Assembly: GCA_965228475.1 (NCBI GenBank)
Contig: OZ245817.1
Span: 1 to 64,000 of the forward strand
DNA: 64,000 nt
Reading direction: 5' to 3'
Origin: Myxococcota bacterium
GTDB lineage: Bacteria; Myxococcota_A; UBA9160; JAFDDA01
Shown: in pieces, positions 9,301-44,906 of the stretch
Numbering within the stretch: position 1 is the stretch's first letter
Layout: every line of letters starts with the position of its first letter
Notes under the pieces: generated by a model
What the model saw: only the letters and a program-made list of their open reading frames with translations
What the model was told of the DNA's origin: nothing
The model's database searches: none
Program-made: the position numbers and the translations under genes

Positions 9301-9332
9301 AGGCGCTCCTCGAGAGTCTCGTCGAGTCCTAG
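9269..9332. repeat. 32-bp tandem duplication at a convergent gene junction
   Basis: aggcgctgctcgagagtctcgtcgagtcctag (9269-9300) vs aggcgctcctcgagagtctcgtcgagtcctag (9301-9332), 1 mismatch. Confidence 0.95.
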
Positions 9333-11863
9333 AACTGGTCGAGCCGCAGGAGACGGCCGCGCTCGGTGCCGCGCGTCGCGGCCTTGGCGGTCTGCGTGGG
9401 TTCGGTGCCCTCGACGAAGCCCTGCAGGTAGGTGTCTTCGCTGCCGGCGTCGGCGAGCATGCCGGTCTCGCGCTCGACCCGGGCGAACACGATGCCCGAG
9501 GGAACCGGGAAGTCCCGCTTCGGGAACCCGGCGAGCGCGGCCTTCATGTAGTCGCGCCAGATCGGGAGCGCCGTGCTGCCGCCCGTCTCGCCCTTGCCGA
9601 GCACCCGCTTCTCGTCGTAGCCGACCCACACGCCGGTCACGACGTCCGGCGAGTAGCCGATGAACCAGACGTCGCCGCCGAAGTTCGTGGTGCCGGTCTT
9701 GCCGCCGACGGGCCGTCCGAGCTCGCGCGCGCCGCGGCCCGTGCCCTGCACGTCGAAGACGGCGGCGCGCAGGAGGTCCGTCGTGAGGTAGGCGAGTTGG
9801 GGCGAGATGATCTGCTTGCGCCGCGTCCCCGGCTCCGCGGCATCGCCGCCCTCGAGGTTCTCGACGATGCGGGCGAGCTCGGCGTCCTCCGGCGACGAAG
9901 GCCGCCACTCCGGCACCTCGGGGATGTTCCCGAGCACCTGGGTGCCGAGGATCTTGTTTCCTTCGCGGTCGAAGACGGCGGTGATGAAGGTCGGCAGGAC
10001 CTGACGCCCGCCCGAGGCGAAGACGGCGTAGGCGCGCGTGTTCTCGAGCAGGGTCACGCCCGAGGAGCCGAGCGCGAGGGAGAGATCCTTCGCCAGCGGC
10101 GATTGGATGCCGAGCCGGCGCGCGTAGTCGATCACGTAGTTCACGCGCAGGTCGCGGAAGAGATGGATCGTCGCGTTGTTCACCGAGCGGGCCAGGGCCT
10201 CGCGCATGGGCAGGCGGCCGAGGAACTTCCGGCTGTAGTTCTGCGGGCGCCAGACGAACCCCGACTCCGGGTCTTCGTAGACCACGGGGCGGTCGACGAG
10301 GATCGACGCCGGGGTGTAGTCCTTGTCGAGGGCGGCGGAGTAGATGATCGGCTTGAAGGAGGAGCCGGCCTGGCGGCGCGCCTGGGTGGCGCGGTCGAAC
10401 TCGCTGCGGCTGTAGTCGTAGCCGCCGACGAGGGCCCGCACGGCGCCCGTCGCCACGTCGAAGGAGAGCAGCGCGCCCTCGACGATCGGCGTCTGGTGGA
10501 TCACCGCCTCGAGCCGGCGGCCCGGGCGCACGAGCCCTTCCTCGTCGCCCTCGGCGGGCTTGATCTGGAACCGGGCGATCTGGCCGGCCTGGAAGATGCT
10601 CTCGATGTGGCGGACGGAGCGCGGCTTCTGCTTCGGGTCCGGTTTGCGCGCCCACTTCACGTCGGCGAGGGAGACGGTGGCCACCTGATCCGGCGCGAAG
10701 GCGACCCGGGCCGTGTCCTTCTTCGGCGAAACCTCGACCACGACGCCCTTCAGCGGCACGTTGTTCCGCAGGCCCGGCGCCTCCGTGGGTTCGCCGTCGT
10801 CGTCGACGCCCGGGACGAGGCCGTTCTCTTCCGCGACCTTGGCGACGGCGACCTCGAGCGCATCCGGCGTGCCCACCTCGATCGGCCCGCGCCAGCCCTG
10901 GCGGCGGTCGAGCTGTTCGAGCCGGCCGCGGATCGAGGCCGTCGCCTCCTTCTGGAGCTCGAGGTCGAGGGTGGTCTCGATGGTCAGACCGCCGCGCAGA
11001 ACGAGCTCGCTCCCGACGGTTTCGTAGAGGCGCCGCCGGACTTCTTCGACGAAGTACGCCCCGACCTGGGCCTTCGTGCGCTCGGAGACCGGGACGAACT
11101 CCGGCTGTTCGTCGAGGGCCGCGCGGAAGGTCTCCTCGTCGATGAACTCTTCGACGCGCATGCGCTGGAGCACGTAGCGCCGGCGCCGCTCGGCGGCCTT
11201 CGGGTTCGACGTCGGCGAATAGGCGCTCGGCCGCTGGGGCAGCCCGGCCAGCAGCGCGGACTCGGAAACGGTGAGCTCCGAGACGTGCTTCCCGTAGTAG
11301 GTGCGCGCGGCCTCGCCGATGCCCCAGGCGCCCTGCCCGAAGTAGATCTGGTTCAGGTAGAGGAAGAGGATGTCTTCCTTCGAGAGTTTCTGTTCGAGGC
11401 GCTGGGCGAGCACCATCTCCTTGATCTTGCGCTGGATCTTGCGCTCGGGGGTGAGCAGCAGGCCCTTCACCGTCTGCTGGGTGATGGTGCTGCCGCCCTG
11501 CTTCACCTCGCCGCCGGCGGCGAGGTTCACCCACGCCGCGCGCAGGATGCCCATGTAGTCGAGGCCCGTGTGCCGGAAGAAGGCCGCGTCCTCGCCGGCG
11601 ACGAAGGCCAGCACCGTGTGCCGGGGCACGGCCTCGTAGGGCACGAGCATGCGGCGCTCGTCGTAGAACTCGCCGATCAGCTCGCCGTTGCGGTCGAGGA
11701 CCCGGCTCGTCACCGGGGGCGCGTACTCGGCGACGCTGTCCATCTCGGGGAGATCGCGCAGCAGCGTGAAATAGATCACGCCGGCGCCGGCGACGGCGCC
11801 CACCACGGAAAGGGCGAGCAGGACGAGGAGGATCCGGACCCCGGAGGATCGCAGGCTGGGCAT
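9329..11863 (-). CDS. mrcA: Penicillin-binding protein 1A
   Basis: Glycosyltransferase motifs EDxxFxxH and GGSTITQQ; transpeptidase SSFK, SVN and GKTGT all intact. Confidence 0.95.
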   Translation of the reverse strand: MPSLRSSGVRILLVLLALSVVGAVAGAGVIYFTLLRDLPEMDSVAEYAPPVTSRVLDRNGELIGEFYDERRMLVPYEAVPRHTVLAFVAGEDAAFFRHTGLDYMGILRAAWVNLAAGGEVKQGGSTITQQTVKGLLLTPERKIQRKIKEMVLAQRLEQKLSKEDILFLYLNQIYFGQGAWGIGEAARTYYGKHVSELTVSESALLAGLPQRPSAYSPTSNPKAAERRRRYVLQRMRVEEFIDEETFRAALDEQPEFVPVSERTKAQVGAYFVEEVRRRLYETVGSELVLRGGLTIETTLDLELQKEATASIRGRLEQLDRRQGWRGPIEVGTPDALEVAVAKVAEENGLVPGVDDDGEPTEAPGLRNNVPLKGVVVEVSPKKDTARVAFAPDQVATVSLADVKWARKPDPKQKPRSVRHIESIFQAGQIARFQIKPAEGDEEGLVRPGRRLEAVIHQTPIVEGALLSFDVATGAVRALVGGYDYSRSEFDRATQARRQAGSSFKPIIYSAALDKDYTPASILVDRPVVYEDPESGFVWRPQNYSRKFLGRLPMREALARSVNNATIHLFRDLRVNYVIDYARRLGIQSPLAKDLSLALGSSGVTLLENTRAYAVFASGGRQVLPTFITAVFDREGNKILGTQVLGNIPEVPEWRPSSPEDAELARIVENLEGGDAAEPGTRRKQIISPQLAYLTTDLLRAAVFDVQGTGRGARELGRPVGGKTGTTNFGGDVWFIGYSPDVVTGVWVGYDEKRVLGKGETGGSTALPIWRDYMKAALAGFPKRDFPVPSGIVFARVERETGMLADAGSEDTYLQGFVEGTEPTQTAKAATRGTERGRLLRLDQF

Positions 11864-34250: not shown

Positions 34251-35267
34251 TCACGTTCCGTCGAAGTCGTGCTCCGTGGTCAGCTGCCGTGTCATGAGCA
34301 GGCTGCGCGCCTGCTCCGGCCGGACCTCGCCGTCGAGCAGGGCCCGGACCATCTGGGTGATGGGCATGTCGACGCCGAGCGCATTGGCCAGGCCGCAGGC
34401 GGCGCGGGTCGTGCGGATGCCCTCGGCCACCTCGTTCATGTCCGCGACGATCTCCGCGAGCGATCGGCCGCGGCCGAGCTCGAGCCCGACCTTCCGGTTG
34501 CGGGAGAGGTCGCCGGTGCAGGTGAGGACCAGGTCGCCCATGCCCGAGAGGCCCAGGAAGGTGGTCGGTTTGGCGCCCATCCGGGTGCCGAGGCGGGTGA
34601 TCTCGTTCAAGCCGCGGGTCATCAGCCCGGCCCGCGCGTTCAGTCCGAGTTCGAGGCCGTCGCAGATGCCGACGGCGATGGCGACGACGTTCTTGAGCGC
34701 CCCGCCGAGCTCCACGCCCACCACGTCGTCGTGGGAGTAGCAGCGGAACCAGTCGCAGGAGAGCGTGGTCTGGACCGCGATGGCGTAGGCCTCCTCCTCG
34801 CAGGCCAGGGTCACCGAGGTCGGCTTGCCGTCGGCGATCTCGCGGGCGAAGGACGGCCCGGAGAGGAACACCAGCCGGGCGTGATGCTCCTCGGGCAGGC
34901 AATCGCGCAGGACCTCGTCCATGCGCGCGCCGGTCTCGACCTCGATCCCCTTCACGGTGGAGACGAGGATGGCGTCCTCGGGCAGGAGCGGCGCGGCGCG
35001 CTTCATCAGCTCCCGGACGCCGTGGCTCGGGACGGCGAGGATCACCATCTCGCGGCCCGCGAGGGCCGTGGCGAGATCCGCGGTGGCGCGGACGTTCTCC
35101 GAGAGCGGGACGTCGCTCAGATAGTTCGGGTTGTGACGGTCGCGCTCGATGGCCTCGGCCGTTGCCGGGTCGCGCGCCCAGAGCGTCACGTCGTGCTCGC
35201 GTGCGGCGAGCATCGCCAGGCAGGTGCCGAAACTGCCGGCGCCGAGCACCGCGACGGGAGTGGTCAC
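34251..35267 (-). CDS. gpsA: NAD(P)H-dependent glycerol-3-phosphate dehydrogenase
   Basis: GAGSFGT, SGPSFARE, GGALKNV, GDLVLTC..SRN, AEG. Confidence 0.96.
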   Translation of the reverse strand: MTTPVAVLGAGSFGTCLAMLAAREHDVTLWARDPATAEAIERDRHNPNYLSDVPLSENVRATADLATALAGREMVILAVPSHGVRELMKRAAPLLPEDAILVSTVKGIEVETGARMDEVLRDCLPEEHHARLVFLSGPSFAREIADGKPTSVTLACEEEAYAIAVQTTLSCDWFRCYSHDDVVGVELGGALKNVVAIAVGICDGLELGLNARAGLMTRGLNEITRLGTRMGAKPTTFLGLSGMGDLVLTCTGDLSRNRKVGLELGRGRSLAEIVADMNEVAEGIRTTRAACGLANALGVDMPITQMVRALLDGEVRPEQARSLLMTRQLTTEHDFDGT

Positions 35268-35438
35268 GGCGGGCAGTGTATCAGCCTGGCACGAAGCATC
35301 GGGCCGCTCGTGCCCCCGGGGGCCGCGAATCGGGTGCGGTCGCCCGGCCCGTGGAGGGAGTCAATTCGACGACTGTACGCCCGCGTTGCTCCCGGGGTAG
35401 TCTCAGCAGGCTCGTGCTGAGCTTGGAGCAAGGATGGA

Positions 35439-35636
35439 ATGTTCAGGAGGGTCGTGCAGAACGTCGGCATCATGATCGCGACGGCTGCACTCGTGGCCGG
35501 ATGGGGGCTCCTGGATCGGGAGTCAGGCCTCGAGAGCTGGTTCGAGCTACGCGAGCAAGTGAGAACCGCGACCGAGAATCTCGATCGCTACAAGCTCGAG
35601 GCAAGAAGTCTTGACCGAGAGTCGAGAGGGCCCTGA
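35439..35636 (+). CDS. FtsB/DivIC-like TM + coiled-coil segment, probably the frameshifted N-terminus of the next gene
   Basis: TM helix then DRESGLESWFELREQVRTATENLDRYKLEARSLDRE, an FtsB-like pattern; adding one G near 35621 joins it to DUF4062. Confidence 0.6.
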   Translation: MFRRVVQNVGIMIATAALVAGWGLLDRESGLESWFELREQVRTATENLDRYKLEARSLDRESRGP

Positions 35637-37000
35637 CCCTGGCGCGCAGTTCCCCTTCAGATGCCGCTCGAGTCTTCATCTCTTCCACGTCCGAGGATCT
35701 TCGCGAGGACCGCGCCAGTACGATCCGGATGCTCCGGCAGCTCGGGTGCAATCCTATTGCGATGGAGGATTTTGCGCCGGGTGGTTCGCCCCCACTACAG
35801 CGTTGTGTCCAGGAAGTCCGCGCGTGTGATGCCTACGTCGGGATATTCGCCTGGCGTTACGGCTACGTGCCAGAGGGGCACGAGAAGAGTATCACCGAGC
35901 TCGAGTACGAGGCCGCTCTCGCGGCAGGGCTGGAAGTGTTTATCTTCCTCATCGACGAAGATTCTCATAGCCCAGACGATGAGATCGGCACGCGCTTCGA
36001 GGCTGTTAGAGACCTCCGTGCCAAGCTGATGAAGAATCACGTTGTCGCTTTCTTTCGGGGTGCCAACGACTTGGCGCCCAAGGTAGTTACGTCGGTTGCG
36101 AAGTGGTTGGCCGGGTCCCGGCGCGAAGATCGCTCGCCGAGTGTTCCTGGCCTGCTCCCCTACCTGAGCGACAGAGATCGGCAAGTCCTCGAGGTCTTTA
36201 GGCTCTTGGAGCAGCGCTCAGCGGGTCAACGCCGCCCCACCTTCATCCTGATGCATGGTGGTTTGGAGCAAGCACACGACACGTTCGTGGATCGACTCAT
36301 TCATCAGGAGCTACCACGGCTTCTCAGGCTGGACCCCACGACCGAGCGAGTGACGCACTTGCCATTGCGATGGCGCGGGGGCGGCACGAGAACAGATCGG
36401 CTCGATTCGCTGGAGCTGCAGCTTGCGCAGGCGCTGGCGAGTCCTTCGCTGGAAGTCCAAGCGCCGAGCACCCTCGGATCGGAGTGGCGGGAGATCGCTT
36501 CCGCCGGGTCCGGGGTACTACTGATCACTTCGATGATCGGTAGCCACGAGTGGCACCACGACGAGGAGGATCTCATCGACTCTTGGATGGGACTCTGGCG
36601 AGGCTTCCCCGATTTGGCACCGGCGAGGTACATCGTTGTGATTGTTGGGGTCCAGTACCGTTCCTCCCCCGAATCTGGGTGGTTGTTTCGAAGAAGGAGC
36701 CGTCGTCAACACGCTGAGATTCGTCGCAGCCTTCGGGCCCTGACTGCCCGAGGGATGGATCGACTTGTCGTCGGCCTGCTGCCGGAACTCTCCAGCGTGA
36801 CCGAAGGGGATGTCGAGGAGTGGATGAAGGATCGGGTCCCAGAATTCTGTGAAGCAACTGGGCGTGACCCCGTGTTGATTCGGGAGCATCTGCTTCCCAA
36901 GGTGAGGGATCTGTTTCGTGATACCCGGGCTCCGATCCCGATGGCGACATTGGGCCCGCAGCTTCGTATGTTGCTCGCGGAAGAGGGCAAGAAGATATGA
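35621..37000 (+). CDS. DUF4062 (TIR/NDT-like) + inactive STAND (iSTAND) protein
   Basis: Frame is open from 35615. RVFISSTSEDLREDR..MEDF..YVGIFAWRYG..SITELEYEAA (DUF4062); LPYLSDRDRQ, HGGLEQAHDTFVDRL, LPELSSVTEGDVEEW (iSTAND-like). The first ATG (35729) lies inside the domain. Confidence 0.75.
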   Translation, partial: VERALTLARSSPSDAARVFISSTSEDLREDRASTIRMLRQLGCNPIAMEDFAPGGSPPLQRCVQEVRACDAYVGIFAWRYGYVPEGHEKSITELEYEAALAAGLEVFIFLIDEDSHSPDDEIGTRFEAVRDLRAKLMKNHVVAFFRGANDLAPKVVTSVAKWLAGSRREDRSPSVPGLLPYLSDRDRQVLEVFRLLEQRSAGQRRPTFILMHGGLEQAHDTFVDRLIHQELPRLLRLDPTTERVTHLPLRWRGGGTRTDRLDSLELQLAQALASPSLEVQAPSTLGSEWREIASAGSGVLLITSMIGSHEWHHDEEDLIDSWMGLWRGFPDLAPARYIVVIVGVQYRSSPESGWLFRRRSRRQHAEIRRSLRALTARGMDRLVVGLLPELSSVTEGDVEEWMKDRVPEFCEATGRDPVLIREHLLPKVRDLFRDTRAPIPMATLGPQLRMLLAEEGKKI

Positions 37001-37965
37001 ACAGACGGATCTTCACGACCGCTGACTCGCCGGATGGTTCTTGGGGCTCGTCGATCGATCGTCGACCTCTGGTAGCGCCTGAGGGATACCAAGCTGACGA
37101 TCGACTAAGGGATGCGGTCAGCGTATCCCTTCATCTCGGCCAGCCGCTTCTATTGACCGGAGAACCGGGAACCGGGAAGACGCAGCTGGCCTTCTCACTC
37201 GCTTGGGAGCTTGGCCTTGGGACTCCGCTGGGGTTTGATACGAAATCAACCAGCACGTCACGAGATCTATTCTACTCCTACGATTCTTTGGGTCGCTTTC
37301 ACGCTGCTCAGGCCGGGGGTGGAACCGCGAATCCGATCGACTATCTCCACTTCAACGCCCTCGGTCTCGCTGTCCTTCGCGCGACGCCACCCGAGAGCTA
37401 CTCCGATCTCAAGGATGCCCTGGGCGAGACTGCGCATCGGAAGCGGTCGGTGGTTTTGATCGACGAGATCGATAAGGCGCCCCGTGATTTCTCGAATGAT
37501 CTCCTCGCCGAACTCGAGGAGATGTATTTTAGGATTCCCGAACTGGCGAATCTCGTGGTCGCGGCAGACCCGGAGTATCGCCCCATCGTTGTCGTCACTA
37601 GCAACTCCGAGCGAAATCTTCCGGACGCGTTCCTGCGTCGCTGCGCCTACCACCACATCGAGTTCCCGGATCGAGATCGCATGCAGAGAATCGTCGCAGC
37701 TCGCCTCGGTGAACGAGTCGCTAAGGACCGGGAGTCGCTGGATCTAGCTCTTGATTTCTTTGAGGCCCTACGTGACCCAGCAACGACGCTCGCAAAGAAG
37801 CCCTCGACCGGCGAGTTCCTAGTTTGGTTGCGAATTCTGTCGGACCGAGGCGTTGGGCGAAACCCGCGGGAATGGGGGGCGACCCTGAGCGCCCTCGTGA
37901 AGACATCCGATGATTCGAGGCGGGCTCTGGGCCTTCTAGCCCGTTTCCGCACCCTGTCCGAGTAG
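36997..37965 (+). CDS. moxR: MoxR-family AAA+ ATPase
   Basis: PLLLTGEPGTGKT, VVLIDEIDKAPRDFSNDLL, TSNSERNLPDAFLRRC; ATGA overlap with the iSTAND gene. Confidence 0.92.
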   Translation: MNRRIFTTADSPDGSWGSSIDRRPLVAPEGYQADDRLRDAVSVSLHLGQPLLLTGEPGTGKTQLAFSLAWELGLGTPLGFDTKSTSTSRDLFYSYDSLGRFHAAQAGGGTANPIDYLHFNALGLAVLRATPPESYSDLKDALGETAHRKRSVVLIDEIDKAPRDFSNDLLAELEEMYFRIPELANLVVAADPEYRPIVVVTSNSERNLPDAFLRRCAYHHIEFPDRDRMQRIVAARLGERVAKDRESLDLALDFFEALRDPATTLAKKPSTGEFLVWLRILSDRGVGRNPREWGATLSALVKTSDDSRRALGLLARFRTLSE

Positions 37966-37970
37966 ATTCC

Positions 37971-40900
37971 TTGCTCCCGTCCGAAGAGTCACTCTTCGAC
38001 CTGCTCGACGAGCTGCGCTCCGCGGGACTTGGGATCGGGACAGAACACTACATTCAGGCGCAAGAGCTGCGTGTCTCCTTCGAGCAAGGCGCGCGATCGC
38101 AGAGCGACTTGTTGTCGTGGCTTGCACCTTTGTTGTGCTCGAGCCCTTCCGATCTGGAGACATTCTCAGAGGTTGCGGAATCCTGGAGCTCTCGAAGCGT
38201 CAATCGTGGCCGTCGCGAGTTTCCGTGGAGCCTCGGCCTCGGAAAGCTCCGTCGAGGGTTCTACGGCTGGCTAGGTCGCTGCCTCGGGAGATCGATTGGG
38301 CGTTGGTCGGGTGGCGCCCGCCTACTTACCGAGCTCAGGAAGCCAGACCGTCTTGGGGCCGTCACCGTAGGGTTGGTCGTTGGGGGCCTGGGCGTTCTCT
38401 TCGTCAGGAACGAGATCCTCGATCTCCGCTACGAGCTAGGCGAGATCTCCCAACAGGTCCTGGCGTTGGACGCCGAGGTTCGAAGTGTTCGAGGGCTGAC
38501 GGGCGGGGACGTCGTGCTTGATTCACCAGACCCGAGTTCCGTTTCCGTGACCGGCGTGATTGTCGACGAGGATGGACAGCCACTAGAAGGCGCGCAGGTC
38601 GAGATCCTAGGCGCACTCGGGGAGACTCGGTCTCTCGAACTCCATCTCGGCCCGCCCTTGGGGGTCGGTTTTCAGGGAAGCAACATCGTTGCGGTGGGCT
38701 CCGAAGAGGGGCGCCCGAAGGTGGTTCGCTGGAACCCAGAGCGTGCAGAGCCAGAGACTTGGTACCTGGAAGCTGATGCACCGAGGCATGCGGAGCTCTT
38801 TCCCGACGCCAGCTCGGTCATTCTGTCGTCTGAGCAGGGAGAGATTTCTCTCTTCGACATCGGGTCCAGCCAAAGCCGTTGGCGAAAGGTGATCCGGGGA
38901 CAAGTGCTTCGAGTGGCATCGTCTCCCCTCTCGACCGGCAGAGCATTCCTTGTTGTGTCCTGGAATCGAGGAATTCTCAGTGCCGAATGGTTCACGATCA
39001 ACGGCAACGGAGAGTCAGCGTCCCTCGTACGGACCATCGAGTCGGATCTCCCAAAGCTGATCGAGACCGAAGTATCCGAGGTCGACTTCCGAGTTCTCGC
39101 TTTGGTCGAGAGTTCCTCAGAGGTCATTGCCTTGGGAATGAGCCGGGCGGGTTCAGAACGGTGGTCACTGCCGGTGGTGGGGGCAGTGGACCTGGGAATG
39201 TCGGGTCAACGCTGGGTGGTCGCTCGAGAGGACTCGATCGAGCTCTACTCGCGAGGGTCGTTGGTCTTGGAGCTCGACGAGGTTGCCGGCGTCAGTGACG
39301 TCGACCTGCGCGAGGACGCTCTGGTCATCGAGACGTCCGAAAGGAGCCTAGCAGTCGTTGATCCGGAGTCTGGAACTCTGAACGTGGATTCTCGAGGGCC
39401 CCCGGACGGCCCGGTCGCGTGGCTCATAACCCAAACGACGATGCATGGTGAAGACCCAGTCTTGCGACGATGGGTTCACGGTCGTCCGACAGAAGCGACG
39501 CTTTCGATCAACAGTCAGAGCGGCGGCCCGAGCCCCGGGAGAGACGGTCACGGCGCGCAGTATCAAGTCGCCCCTGTGACCGCGCTGACTTCCGCGGTCC
39601 GACCCGATGGGCTCGGGGTTGCGACTCTCGGCCTTGGCGGGGTCCTTAGATTTCATGGAGTGCCCCTCGTGAGGACGACGAATCCTCTCGGGCGTTTCCG
39701 TGCCAAGTATCGTTCTCTTGGCGCCTTGACGTTGGTGCGAGCCGAGGCTGCGCCGTACGAATCGCGGACACTTCTGCTACCCGTCGAATCGTCGAGGGCA
39801 GACGTTCAGATTTCCCTCGACGTCGCACAGGTCTCCTCCGGGAAGCCGCTGGTAGAGTCGGTCTTCCTCGGTGTAGCTGTTGCGGTTGCAACGACGCTGG
39901 GCGTCTTCCTGTTGGCTCTGGGACGCCCGCGGGCCGTTGCTGAGCGGGCAGACTCTACGGCGCAGGACGATGCTCCTTCGCTCGCCCTGGCTCAGGGCGG
40001 AGAAAGGGAGCTGATCGATCCGCATGTGATCGACCGAATCAGCCAAGTAGGGGGCGTAGGCGGATCGTCGTTGCAGGCTCGCCTGGACGTTGAAGCGACG
40101 GTCAGGGCAACGGCTGAAGCAGCGGGCCACTTCAAGCCCATCCACGAGGAGATCAGTAGCGATGAGAGGTACCTCGCGCTCATAGATGCGCGCGGGGCGG
40201 GAGACCATCAAGCGCTACTGGTCCTCCATCTGCTCGAGACGCTCGCGAGCCGAGGCTTCCAGGCCACGTGTTTCACATTCCACTCCGATCCGAGGGTCTG
40301 TCGATCGGTTGATTCAGAATCGGATCTTTGGTCGTTGAGTCGCCTTGCCGCGAAGTACTCTGAGCATTCGCTGCTGATCTTTTGCAATCCGGAACAGTGC
40401 TGCGATCTCACGGCTGGAGGCTTGCAGCCCTGGGTTAAGGGGCTGGAGAGTTTCCGCTCCCGCGCAATCCTCGATCCACAGCCGGGAATGCTCTCTGGGG
40501 AGCTGGTGGACTCCCTCACCTCCGCGAACATCTCGGTCGTTCCCTCAACGCCGGAGGGCGTCGAGAGGTTGCTAGCAGGGGCTCGGCATCCGGAACGGGA
40601 GCCTCGCGAACCTCACTCCCCCATCCTTCTGGAACGGCCCCTTCGATGGCTCGACGAAGCCCCTCCACCCGAAGCCGATCAGGACCGTCTCTGTGTGGAG
40701 CTCATTGCGAGCCTTGGCTTCGATGACTTCAATCTGCTTGCAGCATGCGCCGTTTACCCGATCCTCGACTGGCCCCTCACGATCCTGCTTCTGAGGGCAC
40801 TCGACGCCTCGAAGCCCCTGGAGGCGCGTTTTGGGCAGCTACTCAGGTTCTCCCGGCTCCCTTGGTTTCGTGTGGGTTGGATGCCGGACTGGTTGCGCAG

Positions 40901-42812
40901 TCGGCTCCTCCGGGAGCTCCCCGTAGAAACGGAGCGGTCGATCCGTTCGGCCCTGCGGCTTCACATTGGAGCTGCAGGCGACGACGCCCTGAGAGCGACG
41001 GTTCGGCCACGAGGATTGCGTTGGCGGGCAGCAGGGTCTGGGGTGAGCCGGGAGATCGGAGAGGACCGGGTCTTTGTCGGTTTCATGATGGGGAGCCGCG
41101 GTCGTGGCCTCGACGTCGAGCTGAGGAGCGCTCCAGTGTTGCGCTTGATGCTAGGAGCGGGCGTCCAGAGGCTATTCGGGATCTGGCGGGTCCTCCGCGG
41201 GAGAGCGGTGCGGCTGATCGACGTCAGGGTAGGTCGCCTGCGCGACAAGGCGCTGGCTCCGGGCATCTCGTTGATGAGCAGCGCAACGGATCGACGAACG
41301 TTGTCCCGGGTGTATGCCCTGGGCCTGCTAGGCGTTGCGATAGCCGCCGTTCTGGGGGGGCGAGCGATCTATCTGGCTCAGCCTCGCCAAGGTCGCGACA
41401 ACGTTCGGGCCTCGACGATAGTTGTACCGCCGGTAAGGGGAGAGATTCTGGATCGCGATGGTCGTCGTCTCGCGGTTTCCGTAGAGGCGCCCTCTGTCTA
41501 CATAGACAGCGGCTTCGAAGAATCATCGATTCTATCGCTTTCTCGGGCGCTCGAGCTGGACGAGGGCTTCGTGCGCGGTCGGTTCGAGTCGATGAAGAAC
41601 TTCAGTTTCATCCAGCGGTGGGCGTCCGAGGAGGCGGCTGAGCGGGTGCAGAGTCTCGGTATCCCTGGTGTTGGGGTTCTGCGGGAGCCGAGGAGAATGT
41701 ACCCGGAAGGGACTCTGGCTGGTTCACTGGTCGGTTTCGCGAACATCGATGGCGATGGAGTTCGTGGTATCGAACAGGCAGAGGACAATTGGCTCAGGGG
41801 CAGAGAAAGACGAGTCCTGTTTGAACGCGACGCTCGAGGCAAAGTCATGGCCGACGAGATGCTCGACCCCCGCCAGTGGGCCGGCGGAGACGTGCAGCTG
41901 ACACTTGACCTCGCGACACAACGCCGCGTGGTCGGCGAGTTGTCCAAGCTTCTCACCTCTACTCGATCCGGCGGGGCGGTCGGTGTGGTCTTGGGCAGTC
42001 GGAGCGAGGTTACGGCACTCGCGCAGGCTCCCTCGTTCGATCCGAACCGCTTCCGATCGACCTCCTTTGCGGATACTCGGGCGAAGCCGTTCCTCGACTC
42101 TCACCAACCGGGGATGTCGCTTCTCCCGGTATTCCTGGCGATTGGACTGGAGAAGGGCGTGCTAGGCATCGATGCCTTGGAATCGTTCGACCCGGAGGAT
42201 CCGAGAACCCGCAGCACTGCGAGAGTATTGGCGAGAAGGCTCGGTCCGCGCGGGACTTCCGAAGGCCTTCGTGAGGCCGGGTTCGGGCGGGTGTCAGGAA
42301 GCGGCTTCCCTGGTGAGTCCGCGGGAATTCTGCGGCCCTGGGAACAGTGGCGTCCGATCGACCTCGACGCGATCTCGGCTGGATTCGGGATCAACGTGAC
42401 TCCGATCCAGCTCGCATCCGCGCTCTCGGCCCTTGTGGGCGGCGGAGTCCAGAGGTCGCCCGAACTCGTGCTCACACGCCGAAGGCCTGGAGGGCAATGG
42501 CAGGCCCTTCCTCAATCAGATTCTCGACGCGTCGTCTCTGAGGGTACGTCTCAAGCGATCACCCGCTGGTTCGAGTCGCGCTCCATTGAGCTGATCGGAG
42601 GACGATATTCGAGCTTCGAGGTCCGGGCCGAAGCGTTGAGTTCCAGTACGGGCGAGTTCGACGATCAGATCTTCTGGAGCCTCGGCGTGGTATTTGGGCC
42701 GAGTCCTACCGTGATCGTTCTCCAAGTAACGGACCCAGGTACCGGCGTAGAAGACGCTCTCGGAGCGGCCTTCCGGGGAGTCGCCTCTAGGATCCTCGAG
42801 TCTTCTCCATGA
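37971..42812 (+). CDS. MoxR-associated vWA-type protein fused to an FtsL-like helix, carboxypeptidase-regulatory/beta-propeller region and an inactive FtsI-like PBP domain
   Basis: LRSAGLGIG..LAPLLCSS N-domain; LDVEATVRAT..YLALID..DHQA..AACAVYP..RLPWFRVGWMPDWLR (vWA component); RGEILDRDGRRLAVS, RRMYPEG, GIEQ, TLD, VTPIQLA (class B PBP). Confidence 0.8.
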   Translation: MLPSEESLFDLLDELRSAGLGIGTEHYIQAQELRVSFEQGARSQSDLLSWLAPLLCSSPSDLETFSEVAESWSSRSVNRGRREFPWSLGLGKLRRGFYGWLGRCLGRSIGRWSGGARLLTELRKPDRLGAVTVGLVVGGLGVLFVRNEILDLRYELGEISQQVLALDAEVRSVRGLTGGDVVLDSPDPSSVSVTGVIVDEDGQPLEGAQVEILGALGETRSLELHLGPPLGVGFQGSNIVAVGSEEGRPKVVRWNPERAEPETWYLEADAPRHAELFPDASSVILSSEQGEISLFDIGSSQSRWRKVIRGQVLRVASSPLSTGRAFLVVSWNRGILSAEWFTINGNGESASLVRTIESDLPKLIETEVSEVDFRVLALVESSSEVIALGMSRAGSERWSLPVVGAVDLGMSGQRWVVAREDSIELYSRGSLVLELDEVAGVSDVDLREDALVIETSERSLAVVDPESGTLNVDSRGPPDGPVAWLITQTTMHGEDPVLRRWVHGRPTEATLSINSQSGGPSPGRDGHGAQYQVAPVTALTSAVRPDGLGVATLGLGGVLRFHGVPLVRTTNPLGRFRAKYRSLGALTLVRAEAAPYESRTLLLPVESSRADVQISLDVAQVSSGKPLVESVFLGVAVAVATTLGVFLLALGRPRAVAERADSTAQDDAPSLALAQGGERELIDPHVIDRISQVGGVGGSSLQARLDVEATVRATAEAAGHFKPIHEEISSDERYLALIDARGAGDHQALLVLHLLETLASRGFQATCFTFHSDPRVCRSVDSESDLWSLSRLAAKYSEHSLLIFCNPEQCCDLTAGGLQPWVKGLESFRSRAILDPQPGMLSGELVDSLTSANISVVPSTPEGVERLLAGARHPEREPREPHSPILLERPLRWLDEAPPPEADQDRLCVELIASLGFDDFNLLAACAVYPILDWPLTILLLRALDASKPLEARFGQLLRFSRLPWFRVGWMPDWLRSRLLRELPVETERSIRSALRLHIGAAGDDALRATVRPRGLRWRAAGSGVSREIGEDRVFVGFMMGSRGRGLDVELRSAPVLRLMLGAGVQRLFGIWRVLRGRAVRLIDVRVGRLRDKALAPGISLMSSATDRRTLSRVYALGLLGVAIAAVLGGRAIYLAQPRQGRDNVRASTIVVPPVRGEILDRDGRRLAVSVEAPSVYIDSGFEESSILSLSRALELDEGFVRGRFESMKNFSFIQRWASEEAAERVQSLGIPGVGVLREPRRMYPEGTLAGSLVGFANIDGDGVRGIEQAEDNWLRGRERRVLFERDARGKVMADEMLDPRQWAGGDVQLTLDLATQRRVVGELSKLLTSTRSGGAVGVVLGSRSEVTALAQAPSFDPNRFRSTSFADTRAKPFLDSHQPGMSLLPVFLAIGLEKGVLGIDALESFDPEDPRTRSTARVLARRLGPRGTSEGLREAGFGRVSGSGFPGESAGILRPWEQWRPIDLDAISAGFGINVTPIQLASALSALVGGGVQRSPELVLTRRRPGGQWQALPQSDSRRVVSEGTSQAITRWFESRSIELIGGRYSSFEVRAEALSSSTGEFDDQIFWSLGVVFGPSPTVIVLQVTDPGTGVEDALGAAFRGVASRILESSP

Positions 42813-43885
42813 GGAACTCCGCACCCATCGCTCCGTGCCTATTGCTGTCTGGTCTCGGCATCTTGATGGCATATAGCCTCGGCGCTCCACACGGCGTTGA
42901 AAGAGAGCGGTTGCTCGCGCAGCTAGCGGGAGTCGTGGCGGGTGCCATCGCGGGTTTCTTGGTGTACAGGGTGCCGATACGTCTCCTGCACGACGCCAGC
43001 CCGCTCCTGCTCGTAGTGAGCATCTCTCTTACCATCGCAGGGCTGTTGTTTGGCCGTGAGGTGAACGGTGCCAACCTCTATCTCCATCTGTACGTGTCAG
43101 ACCTCGGATTCGGAATCCGGCACGGGTACCTCAGTGTCCTCCTTGCAATGGTATGGATTGCTAGGAGCGTTCGTGACGCTCGCACAGGCCCCGGGATTCC
43201 GTGGCCCCTCTTGCTCGTCCTCTTCCCGGGAGGAGCAATGCTCGCTGCTGGGGACCGAGTGTCGTTTGTACTCCTCACTACGATCGTGGTTCTCGCCCTG
43301 TTCGTGACCGGAGTTCGGATTCGTTGGCTCGTAGGGGCAATGACGATCTCGCTCTCGGTGATGGCTCTCTGGTTGGCGAACAACCCCTATCTTTGGACCC
43401 GCTTTGCTGGGTTTCTTGCACCGTGGGATCGTCGAGAGTACGAGGCCTACTCCCTGGTGCAATCGTTCGTTGCATTCGAGCGTGGAGGCCTCTTGGGGGT
43501 TGGCTTGGGAGACAGTCGCCAGAAACTGTTCTATCTCCCCGAAGCCCACTCTGATTTCGTGCTGGCTGTCTTGGCCGAGGAGCTAGGTGCGGTGGCCGTC
43601 TTGGTGGTGATCCTCTGTTTCGTGTGGATCGGGAGGTATGGATGGCAGGCAGCGATCCGATCGCACACGCTTTTTTCGAGGGCTCTTGCCACAATCACCA
43701 CCGCTTTCCTCGTGGTCCCTGTCACGTTGCACGCCGCGTCCGTTATGGGATTGATCCCGACGTCGACTTTTCCTTTGCCACTGGTCTCCTACGGCCGCAA
43801 CCATCTGCTTGTCTTTGGCGCCGCCATGGGAGTCCTTTGCCGCATCGACAGAGAATCGGCCCGAATGGACGGAATGGACGAGTAG
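42809..43885 (+). CDS. ftsW: Divergent FtsW-like SEDS membrane protein
   Basis: QSFVAFERGGLLGVGLGDSRQKLFYLPEAHSDFVLAVLAEELG, LPLVSYG; about 10 TMs; ATGA overlap. Confidence 0.82.
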   Translation: MRNSAPIAPCLLLSGLGILMAYSLGAPHGVERERLLAQLAGVVAGAIAGFLVYRVPIRLLHDASPLLLVVSISLTIAGLLFGREVNGANLYLHLYVSDLGFGIRHGYLSVLLAMVWIARSVRDARTGPGIPWPLLLVLFPGGAMLAAGDRVSFVLLTTIVVLALFVTGVRIRWLVGAMTISLSVMALWLANNPYLWTRFAGFLAPWDRREYEAYSLVQSFVAFERGGLLGVGLGDSRQKLFYLPEAHSDFVLAVLAEELGAVAVLVVILCFVWIGRYGWQAAIRSHTLFSRALATITTAFLVVPVTLHAASVMGLIPTSTFPLPLVSYGRNHLLVFGAAMGVLCRIDRESARMDGMDE

Positions 43886-44091
43886 GGTCCTATGTGCCCT
43901 GCGCAATAAGCCGTCTTCGTGTCGCAGCGGCTTGCCTACTGGGCGGCTCGATGCGTTGACGGGCATTTTGCTCGCGGCTAGCTTCCCCGAGATCCCTAGA
44001 TCTATCGCGGAGTTCCGCCACAGTCCGCACACCAGTCCGCACGCGTCTTGGCGCGCCTTCGCCGCCCGCCAGAAGCTGGAGGGGCTCCTCG

Positions 44092-44445
44092 ATGCTGGCC
44101 GAGTTCACCGGCGTGCTGCTGATGCTTGGGGTCGCCCTGGCCGTGGCCGGCGGCATGCTGCTCGTGCAGCAGCTCCTCTCGCCCCGCCGCGAATTCCCCG
44201 AGAAGCAGGAACCCTTCGAGTGCGGCGAGAGCCCCGTCGTCTCCCCCCGCCAGCGCTTCAGCGTGAAGTTCTATCTCGTCGCGATGCTCTTCCTCGTGTT
44301 CGATCTCGAGGCGGTGTTCTTCTACCCCTGGGCCGCGCTCTTCACGGACCTCGGCTGGTACGGCTACGGGATCATGACGGTCTTCGCCGTGCCGCTGGTC
44401 GTGGGCCTCGCCTACGAGTGGATGAAGGGCGCGCTCGAGTGGTGA
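44092..44445 (+). CDS. nuoA: NADH-quinone oxidoreductase subunit A
   Basis: PFECG, KFYLVAMLFLVFDLE, YEWMKGALEW. Confidence 0.95.
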   Translation: MLAEFTGVLLMLGVALAVAGGMLLVQQLLSPRREFPEKQEPFECGESPVVSPRQRFSVKFYLVAMLFLVFDLEAVFFYPWAALFTDLGWYGYGIMTVFAVPLVVGLAYEWMKGALEW

Positions 44446-44906
44446 TCTCCGAGGCCACCCGCTCGGCCATCGACGCACAGGTCGCGCGCTACCCGAGGCC
44501 GCGCGGCGCGCTGCTGCCGGCCCTGCACCTCGTCCAGAAGGAGCACGGCCACGTCTCGCCCGACGCGGCGCGCGAGCTCGCGGAGATCTTCGCGCTCGAG
44601 CCCATCGAAGTGTTCGAGGTGATCTCCTTCTACAACATGTTCCGCAGCCGGCCCGAGGGCCGCCACCACGTCTACGTCTGCACGAATCTGCCCTGCTCCC
44701 TGCGCGGCGCGCGGGGCCTGCTCGGCCAGCTCGAGGCACACCTCGGCATCCGGGCCGGGGAGACCACGGAGGACGGACGCATCACCCTCGGCCACGAGGA
44801 ATGCCTCGGCGCCTGCGGCTACGCCTCGATGCTGCGCGTCGACGAGACCTATCACGAAGACCTCGACCCGGCCCGCGCCAAGGAGATCCTCGACGCCCTC
44901 GAATAG
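44442..44906 (+). CDS. nuoE: NADH-quinone oxidoreductase subunit E
   Basis: SFYNMF, VCTNLPC, ECLGAC 2Fe-2S ligands. Confidence 0.93.
   Translation: MISEATRSAIDAQVARYPRPRGALLPALHLVQKEHGHVSPDAARELAEIFALEPIEVFEVISFYNMFRSRPEGRHHVYVCTNLPCSLRGARGLLGQLEAHLGIRAGETTEDGRITLGHEECLGACGYASMLRVDETYHEDLDPARAKEILDALE

Follow-up and report, generated by a model that had tools for sequence, protein, structure and literature searches.

A 64,000-nucleotide stretch from a Myxococcota bacterium (contig OZ245817.1, positions 1 to 64,000 of the forward strand; hereafter the window) encodes a 1,613-residue membrane protein whose C-terminal 513 residues (window 41271-42809) have the fold of FtsI/PBP3, a penicillin-binding protein of class B (bPBP). 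We found that this FtsI-like module has lost all three transpeptidase motifs and keeps most conserved positions of its transmembrane (TM) helix and pedestal, the half that contacts SEDS glycan polymerases. It is fused behind a vWA-like subunit in what its gene content identifies as an iSTAND/MoxR/vWA ternary conflict system with a putative NADase domain, and the next gene of the same island encodes an FtsW-like SEDS protein. These features suggest that the conflict system connects to the division machinery by binding, not by enzyme activity.

The open reading frame (ORF; 37971-42812) is open across its 1,613 codons. The module matched Pfam families PF03717 PBP_dimer (40.5 bits, cut-off 24.4) and PF00905 Transpeptidase (59.3 bits, cut-off 22.1), the latter over positions 110-216 only of a 299-position profile, and it matched solved FtsI/PBP2 chains with E 7e-42. 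An AlphaFold2 model of the 513 residues had a mean predicted local distance difference test score (pLDDT) of 90.9, a confidence that may be inflated by the alignment of active homologues on which the model was built. Foldseek searches with this model returned P. aeruginosa PBP3 structures as top matches (TM-score about 0.75; 6i1e, E 6e-36), so that the FtsI/PBP3-like domain proposed in the initial annotation of this locus is well founded. The module scored far under the cut-offs of the NCBIfam equivalogs for FtsI (160.9 against 1105), PBP2 (146.6 against 688) and SpoVD (120.3 against 737), and its best standalone homologues showed 35-45% identity, with Myxococcota FtsI at about 40%. Many of the nearest FtsI homologues, from Myxococcota and relatives, carry C-terminal PASTA, which is absent from the island copy. 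Separate translation of the module from an internal ATG at 41274 was considered and rejected; no Shine-Dalgarno-like sequence precedes this codon, and we therefore treat the fusion as real.

We detected the loss of each transpeptidase motif by alignment. At motif 1, EPGSAIKP of gonococcal PBP2 aligned with QPGMSLLP, placing Met282 at the catalytic Ser and Leu285 at the Lys (domain numbering), the same two replacements that had been read initially from the sequence at 42105-42128; in the model, Met282 lies at the start of the helix whose first residue is normally the catalytic Ser. The SxN region, previously described as deleted, indeed falls in a gap of 26 alignment columns, and the module carries a second deletion of 9 columns, both in frame. 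At motif 3 the loss of KTG stands, with a correction to what replaces it: the KTG columns hold F449-E450-V451, directly after GGRYSS, and not GGRYSS itself. A regular-expression scan for S..K, S.N, [KH][ST]G and Y.N found none of these patterns in all 513 residues, and alignment to FtsI structures revealed no intact SxxK/SxN/KTG site. Among 112 aligned homologues, the Ser and Lys of SxxK were retained in 112/112, SSN in 112/112 and KTG in 111/112, the single homologue without KTG being a truncated sequence. As a control, PBP1A from the same window (9329-11863, minus strand) contains Transgly and Transpeptidase domains with SSFK501, SVN560 and KTG722 intact, confirming its earlier description. 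Because all three motifs are lost, we conclude from the alignments that the module is not a transpeptidase, in agreement with the initial view that it is not an enzyme.

Conservation was uneven along the module. Conserved columns were defined by at least 90% agreement among the 112 homologues. The TM and pedestal half kept 54 of 62 such columns (leave-one-out controls, n = 112: mean 97%, minimum 86%), and the strings cited initially as signs of a preserved TM and pedestal region do lie in invariant or nearly invariant columns; the transpeptidase half kept only 51 of 105 (controls, n = 112: mean 97%, minimum 74%). Mean identity to the homologues was 41% for the pedestal half and 37% for the transpeptidase half, compared with 52% and 58%, respectively, for random pairs of homologues. 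This asymmetric retention of columns argues that family constraint is relaxed much more in the catalytic half than in the SEDS-contacting half. The frame nevertheless stays open through the 281 strongly diverged codons of the transpeptidase half. In a drift simulation of 281 codons, the probability of meeting no stop was 0.16 with 19% of residues changed and 0.015 with 39% changed, which is a rough argument only, as the simulation was restricted to substitutions and left indels out. Plain decay of the module thus appears unlikely, and the earlier statement that it is not a decayed pseudogene holds on these grounds and on the patterned conservation.

The gene that follows is translationally coupled to the large ORF and starts inside its stop, with an overlap of 4 nt (ATGA). 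Its product covers positions 7-354 of the 356-position PF01098 profile (177.9 bits, cut-off 26.4) and has the ten-TM body of the SEDS family; against the NCBIfam FtsW model TIGR02614 it scored 213.9 bits, under the cut-off of 337.5. Its best solved match was P. aeruginosa FtsW, and the nearest proteins were Myxococcota FtsW with 35-44% identity. D249, in the motif LPEAHSDF, aligned with LPEAHTDF of 25hr_A and corresponds to PaFtsW D275, EcFtsW D297 and TtRodA D255. PaFtsW D275 is described as a putative catalytic residue whose loss abolishes activity, D275A being dominant-negative (PMC10764723). The island SEDS protein kept 80 of 114 FtsW-conserved columns, compared with 108/114 for the FtsW of the host and a mean of 97% (minimum 92%) for 56 FtsW controls. 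Reading this loss as a sign of inactivity was tempered by the RodA-like paralogue of the host, which retains even fewer (68/114); the 114-column count therefore includes FtsW-specific positions, and we narrowed the test to 66 SEDS-wide columns common to the 56 FtsW proteins, host FtsW and the host RodA-like protein. Of these 66, 43 stand unchanged in the island protein and 23 do not; among the losses are the (R/G)W motif change W91Y, Q104R, Y107 at the acidic position of QPxE, Q147A (QxD), N308H and G320T. The Trp and QPxE/K positions (W105, E114, K117) are said to be essential in RodA, reportedly from work of Meeske in 2016 and Sjodt in 2018. By region, FtsW-conserved columns were kept at 17/35 in residues 1-195, 41/48 in residues 196-265 (extracellular loop 4, ECL4) and 22/31 in residues 266-358.

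Complex prediction for the SEDS protein with the 513-residue module gave a score of 0.72, compared with 0.00 for the best of three controls, a level that 116 of 157 solved complexes and 2 of 215 mismatched pairs attained. The runs shared at least 67% of contacts with a partner pLDDT of at least 79, and the predicted interface sets the TM helix of the module (residues 1-39) against SEDS residues 256-315, as in the solved RodA-PBP2 and FtsWI complexes. Since similar complexes have already been solved (6PL5, 8BH1), the score may reflect mere likeness to them.

One possible effector role is futile synthesis. If switched on by the transpeptidase-dead module, a still active SEDS protein would flood the periplasm with uncross-linked glycan and drain lipid II, a beta-lactam-like effect; a futile cycle of glycan synthesis under transpeptidase inhibition was reportedly described by Cho, Uehara and Bernhardt in 2014. 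Retention of D249 and of most ECL4-region columns (41/48) is compatible with such futile synthesis, as is the report that FtsW requires its cognate bPBP together with that partner's TM helix, and not the transpeptidase active site, for polymerase activity (bioRxiv 10.1101/358663). Against this idea stand the changes at 23 of the 66 SEDS-wide columns, W91Y, Q104R, Y107, Q147A, N308H and G320T among them, in a family where none of the 56 FtsW controls falls below 92% of the FtsW-conserved columns and host FtsW keeps 108/114. We consider futile synthesis improbable.

The first 1,100 residues of the fused protein place it in a large family. From hydropathy, three TM segments give an N-in, C-out topology in which the FtsI-like module is periplasmic, the usual orientation of a bPBP. 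When residues 1-1100 were compared with 1.84 billion representative proteins, 2,688 relatives came up at E <= 0.001, each aligning over a core at about residues 650-1050, and a phmmer search with residues 1-110 matched the N-termini of 144 of the 149 relatives listed. Across the 37 relatives scanned, Pfam recognised no family in the core, and none of the 149 relatives listed contained a bPBP domain. The 485-residue periplasmic insert of our protein gave weak, sub-threshold Pfam matches to CarboxypepD_reg and PQQ_2; the same position in relatives holds CarboxypepD_reg, PASTA, PEGA or WD40. Modules found across the 37 scanned relatives were PASTA, PEGA, CarboxypepD_reg, WD40, LemA, Yip1, MFS and peptidase M50, and further SLT with TPR, CHASE2, trypsin, IcmF-related, EAD8, PG_binding_1 and jacalin. 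Sensor or ligand-binding modules among those at the C-terminus of relatives were CHASE2, PASTA, WD40, TPR, PG_binding_1 and jacalin. A model of the core (pLDDT 79) had the vWA domain of NorD, from the NorQD complex, as its top Foldseek match with a weak E of 1.8e-3. A VIA fold search of the core returned generic Z scores of 8.0-8.8, in which the MIDAS domain of Rea1 (Z 8.5, root mean square deviation 4.0, 166 residues aligned) stood level with TIR, REC and further Rossmann-like folds. Of the initially proposed fusion to a vWA protein, the fusion is upheld by the single 1,613-codon frame, and the vWA label is retained as a published family assignment for which our own fold evidence is weak.

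That assignment comes from the iSTAND ternary systems, which combine a MoxR AAA+ ATPase, a vWA component and an inactive STAND protein (Kaur et al. 2020, PMC7159879). In the same account the vWA component has a CoxE-type 4-helix N-domain, TM segments and a variable C-terminus, where peptidoglycan-associated domains sometimes sit behind a TM segment, and the inactive STAND protein carries TIR-type or other domains as fusions. The two genes upstream of the fused ORF appear to fit this scheme. The first contains an iSTAND domain (PF19995, 35.9 bits, cut-off 24) that is the sole iSTAND match in the genome, and the second, a candidate MoxR-type ATPase, matched PF00004 (42.6 bits) and PF07728 AAA_5 (41.2 bits, cut-off 22), with Midasin as best solved match over the P-loop region only (E 4.9e-8). 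Among 80 loci from other species that contain a relative of the core, an iSTAND homologue was present in 54/80 and a MoxR homologue in 70/80 (phmmer, E <= 1e-5); a SEDS or bPBP gene was found in 0/80, within the flanks fetched. PADLOC gave no match for the iSTAND, 1,613-residue or SEDS protein and only weak P-loop matches for the AAA+ protein. We conclude from this gene content that the locus is an iSTAND/MoxR/vWA ternary conflict system with a putative NADase domain.

The putative NADase is a DUF4062 domain at the N-terminus of the iSTAND protein. Three preprints of 2026 present DUF4062 as a TIR-like NADase of anti-phage defence, and in one of them its defence function needs an auxiliary sensing domain (10.64898/2026.05.01.722283). 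Translated from the first ATG, the domain matched PF13271 with 56.4 bits over profile positions 22-82 only, and from the stop-to-stop frame at 35615 it matched the full profile (1-82 of 82) with 86.9 bits; the frame upstream of the first ATG (window 35615-35729) encodes RVFISSTSEDLREDR. There is no in-frame ATG, GTG or TTG upstream of 35729, and in-frame CTG codons at 35633 and 35639 come after GAGAGGG. The true start of the DUF4062-iSTAND gene thus probably lies upstream, at about 35633-35639; unless a non-canonical start codon serves there, the NADase domain is missing its N-terminal end. A domain scan of the iSTAND and AAA+ proteins found no other candidate sensor domain.

The four plus-strand genes lie head-to-tail within a stretch where G+C drops from about 70% for the window to 60-63% across 36-44 kb. 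This island of about 8.6 kb (window 35300-44900 region) is situated between gpsA and the nuoE/F/G genes. G+C at third codon positions (GC3) was 0.65-0.70 in every segment of the island, the FtsI-like part and SEDS gene among them, and 0.94-0.95 in gpsA and nuoF. The gpsA-nuoF spacing is 9.66 kb here and about 1.0 kb, on one contig, in two relatives, one genome of the same genus and one of the same family. The uniform low GC3 and the empty gpsA-nuoF junction in relatives indicate that all four genes arrived as one unit from a donor of lower GC and did not arise by duplication of genes of the host. A tRNA search of the window came up empty, and none of the ORFs scanned was recognised as an integrase. 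Contigs from three public runs (two studies) were identical over 8.2 kb, making an assembly error unlikely, although the best-matching runs may be the source of this DNA; no RNA run was listed as containing the stretch. The ORF holding NuoE (43809-44906) has its domain at residues 222-364 and 220 extra codons upstream that overlap the end of the SEDS gene; the true nuoE start is probably near 44.4 kb, and the extended ORF is apparently an artefact of high GC. The coordinates of the island and of the parts of the fused protein are collected in the table.

The host genome has three SEDS-bPBP pairs: FtsI and FtsW of the dcw cluster, about 7 kb apart (FtsI at about 3.11 Mb), an adjacent PBP2/RodA-like pair at about 4.30 Mb and the island pair. 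The island bPBP is 40% identical to host dcw FtsI and 28% to host PBP2; the island SEDS protein is 36% identical to host FtsW and 26% to the host RodA-like protein. These relationships bear on the proposal that the module alone titrates host FtsW or FtsL and that the adjoining SEDS gene is incidental. The conserved TM helix and pedestal would suit a titrating module, but the SEDS gene overlaps the ORF stop, shares the island GC3, encodes the predicted binder of the module and shows equal divergence (about 40% from the nearest FtsW), and the module itself is only 40% identical to host FtsI. We regard titration by the module alone as very unlikely.

A second fused form was sought in a protein search (887-2823 residues), which returned nothing beyond the query and a single, unrelated fusion with a Mur ligase; the N-terminal 1,100 residues were found in 0/60 related genomes, and a metagenome scan for close relatives gave only matches of 25-35% identity. 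The fused gene is unique among the sequences searched and rests on a single genome. A singleton could be a relic, a captured FtsI-FtsW pair that is decaying and idle while only the iSTAND/MoxR/vWA core and the NADase matter. Besides its occurrence once among the proteins searched and the 80 related loci, this view draws on the loss of many family-conserved positions in both proteins and on the iSTAND gene, which has no canonical start for the full domain. Yet the 513 codons of the module and the 358 codons of the SEDS gene contain no stop or frameshift despite about 60% divergence from every homologue; the drift simulation of 281 codons, with indels left out, put the probability of meeting no stop at 0.015-0.16. 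Both deletions are in frame, conservation is patterned (54/62 against 51/105 columns in the module; 41/48 in ECL4), and the fold is predicted with a confidence that may owe something to the active homologues in the alignment. An idle relic is accordingly improbable in our estimate.

Table: Features of the island and of the fused protein (positions in the window)
Feature	Position	Strand	Evidence
gpsA, one flank of the island	34251-35267	-	
Putative NADase-iSTAND gene (DUF4062 TIR-like domain and iSTAND)	35729..37000	+	PF13271, PF19995
MoxR-like AAA+ ATPase gene	36997..37965	+	PF00004, PF07728
1,613-residue membrane subunit, vWA-like component carrying the FtsI-like module	37971..42812	+	Single open frame
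N-terminal helical domain, residues ~1-80, cytoplasmic	37971..38210	+	phmmer; family consensus
TM1, residues 127-145	38349..38405	+	Kyte-Doolittle peak 1.99
Periplasmic insert, residues 146-630, beta-sandwich and propeller-like	38406..39860	+	Sub-threshold Pfam matches
TM2, residues 631-649	39861..39917	+	Kyte-Doolittle peak 2.46, then positively charged stretch
Cytoplasmic conserved core, alpha/beta (vWA-like) and helical domain	39918..41270	+	Family search; model
TM3, bPBP membrane anchor, residues 1111-1135	41301..41375	+	Hydropathy; helix 6-36 of model; predicted SEDS contact
FtsI-type pedestal, non-catalytic N-module, well conserved	41376..41966	+	PF03717
Degenerate transpeptidase-fold domain	41967..42809	+	51/105 conserved columns; PBP3-like model
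Motif 1 remnant QPGMSLLP in place of EPGSxxKP	42105..42128	+	Pairwise and multiple alignments
In-frame deletion site, SxN lost, 26 alignment columns	42225..42230	+	Alignment; hidden Markov model match splits at residues 1418/1419
Motif 3 strand remnant GGRYSSFEV	42597..42623	+	FEV in KTG columns
FtsW-like SEDS partner gene	42809..43885	+	PF01098 177.9 bits; ATGA overlap with preceding stop

From the dead active site and the kept pairing half we infer that the pair acts by binding. We tentatively favour an input role, in which a mimic of FtsW-FtsI serves as a docking, sensor or integrated-decoy module of the NADase system. The FtsI-like region would then be the variable, periplasm-facing C-terminal module of the vWA-like subunit, probably unable to cross-link peptidoglycan or to be acylated by beta-lactams. 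This pseudo-transpeptidase is predicted to pair through its membrane helix and pedestal with the co-acquired SEDS protein, and the pair would imitate the septal FtsW-FtsI synthase without catalysis. An event at the division or cell-wall machinery would be relayed through the membrane to the vWA/MoxR/iSTAND parts in the cytoplasm, and these would then release the NADase. Transpeptidase-dead bPBPs can retain non-catalytic roles, and such a PBP3 still functions in C. difficile (PMC12539705). We favour an input role because the putative NADase would already supply a killing activity, because the other subunits have no sensor-type domain and because relatives often hold ligand-binding domains at the equivalent position. 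The pairing with the SEDS protein, taken from prediction only, is inferred, as are the direction of signalling and the trigger. In the specific form of an integrated decoy, phage or competitor proteins that attack the septal synthase would bind the mimic and trip the DUF4062 NADase; we rate this form as unlikely.

Several observations weigh against an input role. The transpeptidase half and the cavity positions of the SEDS protein are both degenerate, and there is thus no obvious ligand site for sensing peptidoglycan. The periplasmic insert (window 38406-39860) is an alternative candidate sensor. Enzymes (trypsin, SLT and peptidase M50) also occur at the C-terminus of relatives. The DxSxS MIDAS motif is absent from the core, which reads LIDARGAGDHQ here and LIDRxSxxDHQ in the family consensus; the fold evidence for the 'vWA' label is weak, and the label follows the published family assignment. 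The fused gene is a singleton. The SEDS protein, finally, may still polymerise glycan, given that it retains the catalytic Asp and LPEAHSDF.

An effector role by interference is the strongest competitor of an input role. Here a dead pair activated by MoxR and the vWA-like core would compete with the septal synthase of the host for FtsQLB, FtsN or lipid II and so block division or septal wall synthesis, a dominant-negative arrest of growth that extends the initial reading of the module to the pair. Kaur et al. term the C-terminal modules of vWA components effectors and do not read them as sensors (PMC7159879), which also counts against an input role. Overproduced inactive FtsW variants inhibit growth in S. 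aureus and P. aeruginosa (10.1101/358663), PaFtsW D275A is dominant-negative, and the best-kept parts of the island pair, the pedestal and ECL4, correspond to FtsL contacts in the solved divisome (PMC10764723). However, the island proteins are only 40% (bPBP) and 36% (SEDS) identical to host FtsI and FtsW, and cognate specificity is tight, SaFtsW working only with its own bPBP (10.1101/358663). Moreover, the catalytic Asp whose loss is dominant-negative is retained, and the system already contains a putative NADase effector. We consider interference somewhat unlikely. The initial annotation had read the module as a binding decoy or dominant-negative. Its premises, a dead site and uneven conservation, are supported; the conclusion is less secure, since the overlapping SEDS gene encodes a protein predicted to bind the TM helix, and pairing with this partner explains the kept pedestal at least as well. 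Given the iSTAND/MoxR/vWA and DUF4062 context, a sensor or integrated-decoy role is no less likely than an inhibitory one.

The finding is one example, from sequence analysis of one genome. If the input role is correct, SEDS-bPBP pairs can serve conflict systems as non-catalytic modules, away from growth and division, and the computationally predicted iSTAND ternary systems gain a concrete and testable link to the envelope. The pair would be a natural separation-of-function allele, with pedestal, TM helix and ECL4 kept and catalysis lost, that marks the pairing surfaces, and it is a candidate for coupling a cytoplasmic NADase to an extramembrane event. Should the integrated-decoy form be true, the system would guard cell-wall synthesis as a prokaryotic equivalent of the integrated decoys of NLRs.

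The kind of system is already known from computational work, and a SEDS-bPBP pair as its variable module is absent from the texts and relatives examined. The island shares with the iSTAND ternary systems an iSTAND protein, an AAA+ ATPase and a vWA-like subunit with helical N-domain, TM segments and variable C-terminal module, but its operon has a fourth gene, for the SEDS protein. Cell-wall-associated PEGA, OmpA, PASTA and Sel1 modules are described computationally for these systems, which are enriched in multicellular bacteria, including deltaproteobacteria-type lineages (PMC7159879). The text and readable supplements of Kaur et al. 2020, apart from the architecture table, make no mention of penicillin, transpeptidase or FtsW, and nor does the text of the 2021 follow-up. 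The DUF4062 NADase proteins called Swarozyc, with E97 as the catalytic Glu of KpSwz, likewise combine an N-terminal DUF4062 with an auxiliary regulatory part and defend through NAD+ depletion, whereas the island DUF4062 is fused to iSTAND within a MoxR/vWA operon; the text of the preprint (10.64898/2026.05.01.722283) mentions neither iSTAND nor MoxR.

With FtsI/PBP3 (P. aeruginosa PBP3, 6i1e and 8bh1; host FtsI) the module has in common the TM anchor, the pedestal, the transpeptidase fold and the predicted pairing with a SEDS protein. It differs in the absence of SxxK, SxN, KTG and the PASTA tail, in its two in-frame deletions and in its position behind 1,100 residues of a conflict-system protein. 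Engineered transpeptidase-dead bPBPs (S. thermophilus PBP2x*, C. difficile PBP3 S299A) still activate or support their partner synthase and require the TM helix. Those proteins are laboratory point mutants of housekeeping enzymes, whereas the loss in the island is natural, affects three motifs with additional deletions and lies in an accessory island. In the integrated decoys of plant NLRs, the immune machine has fused to it a copy of a host target that is no longer active but still offers its binding surfaces; the island module may resemble them, by analogy only, in combining a dead active site with a kept binding half behind the core of a conflict system.

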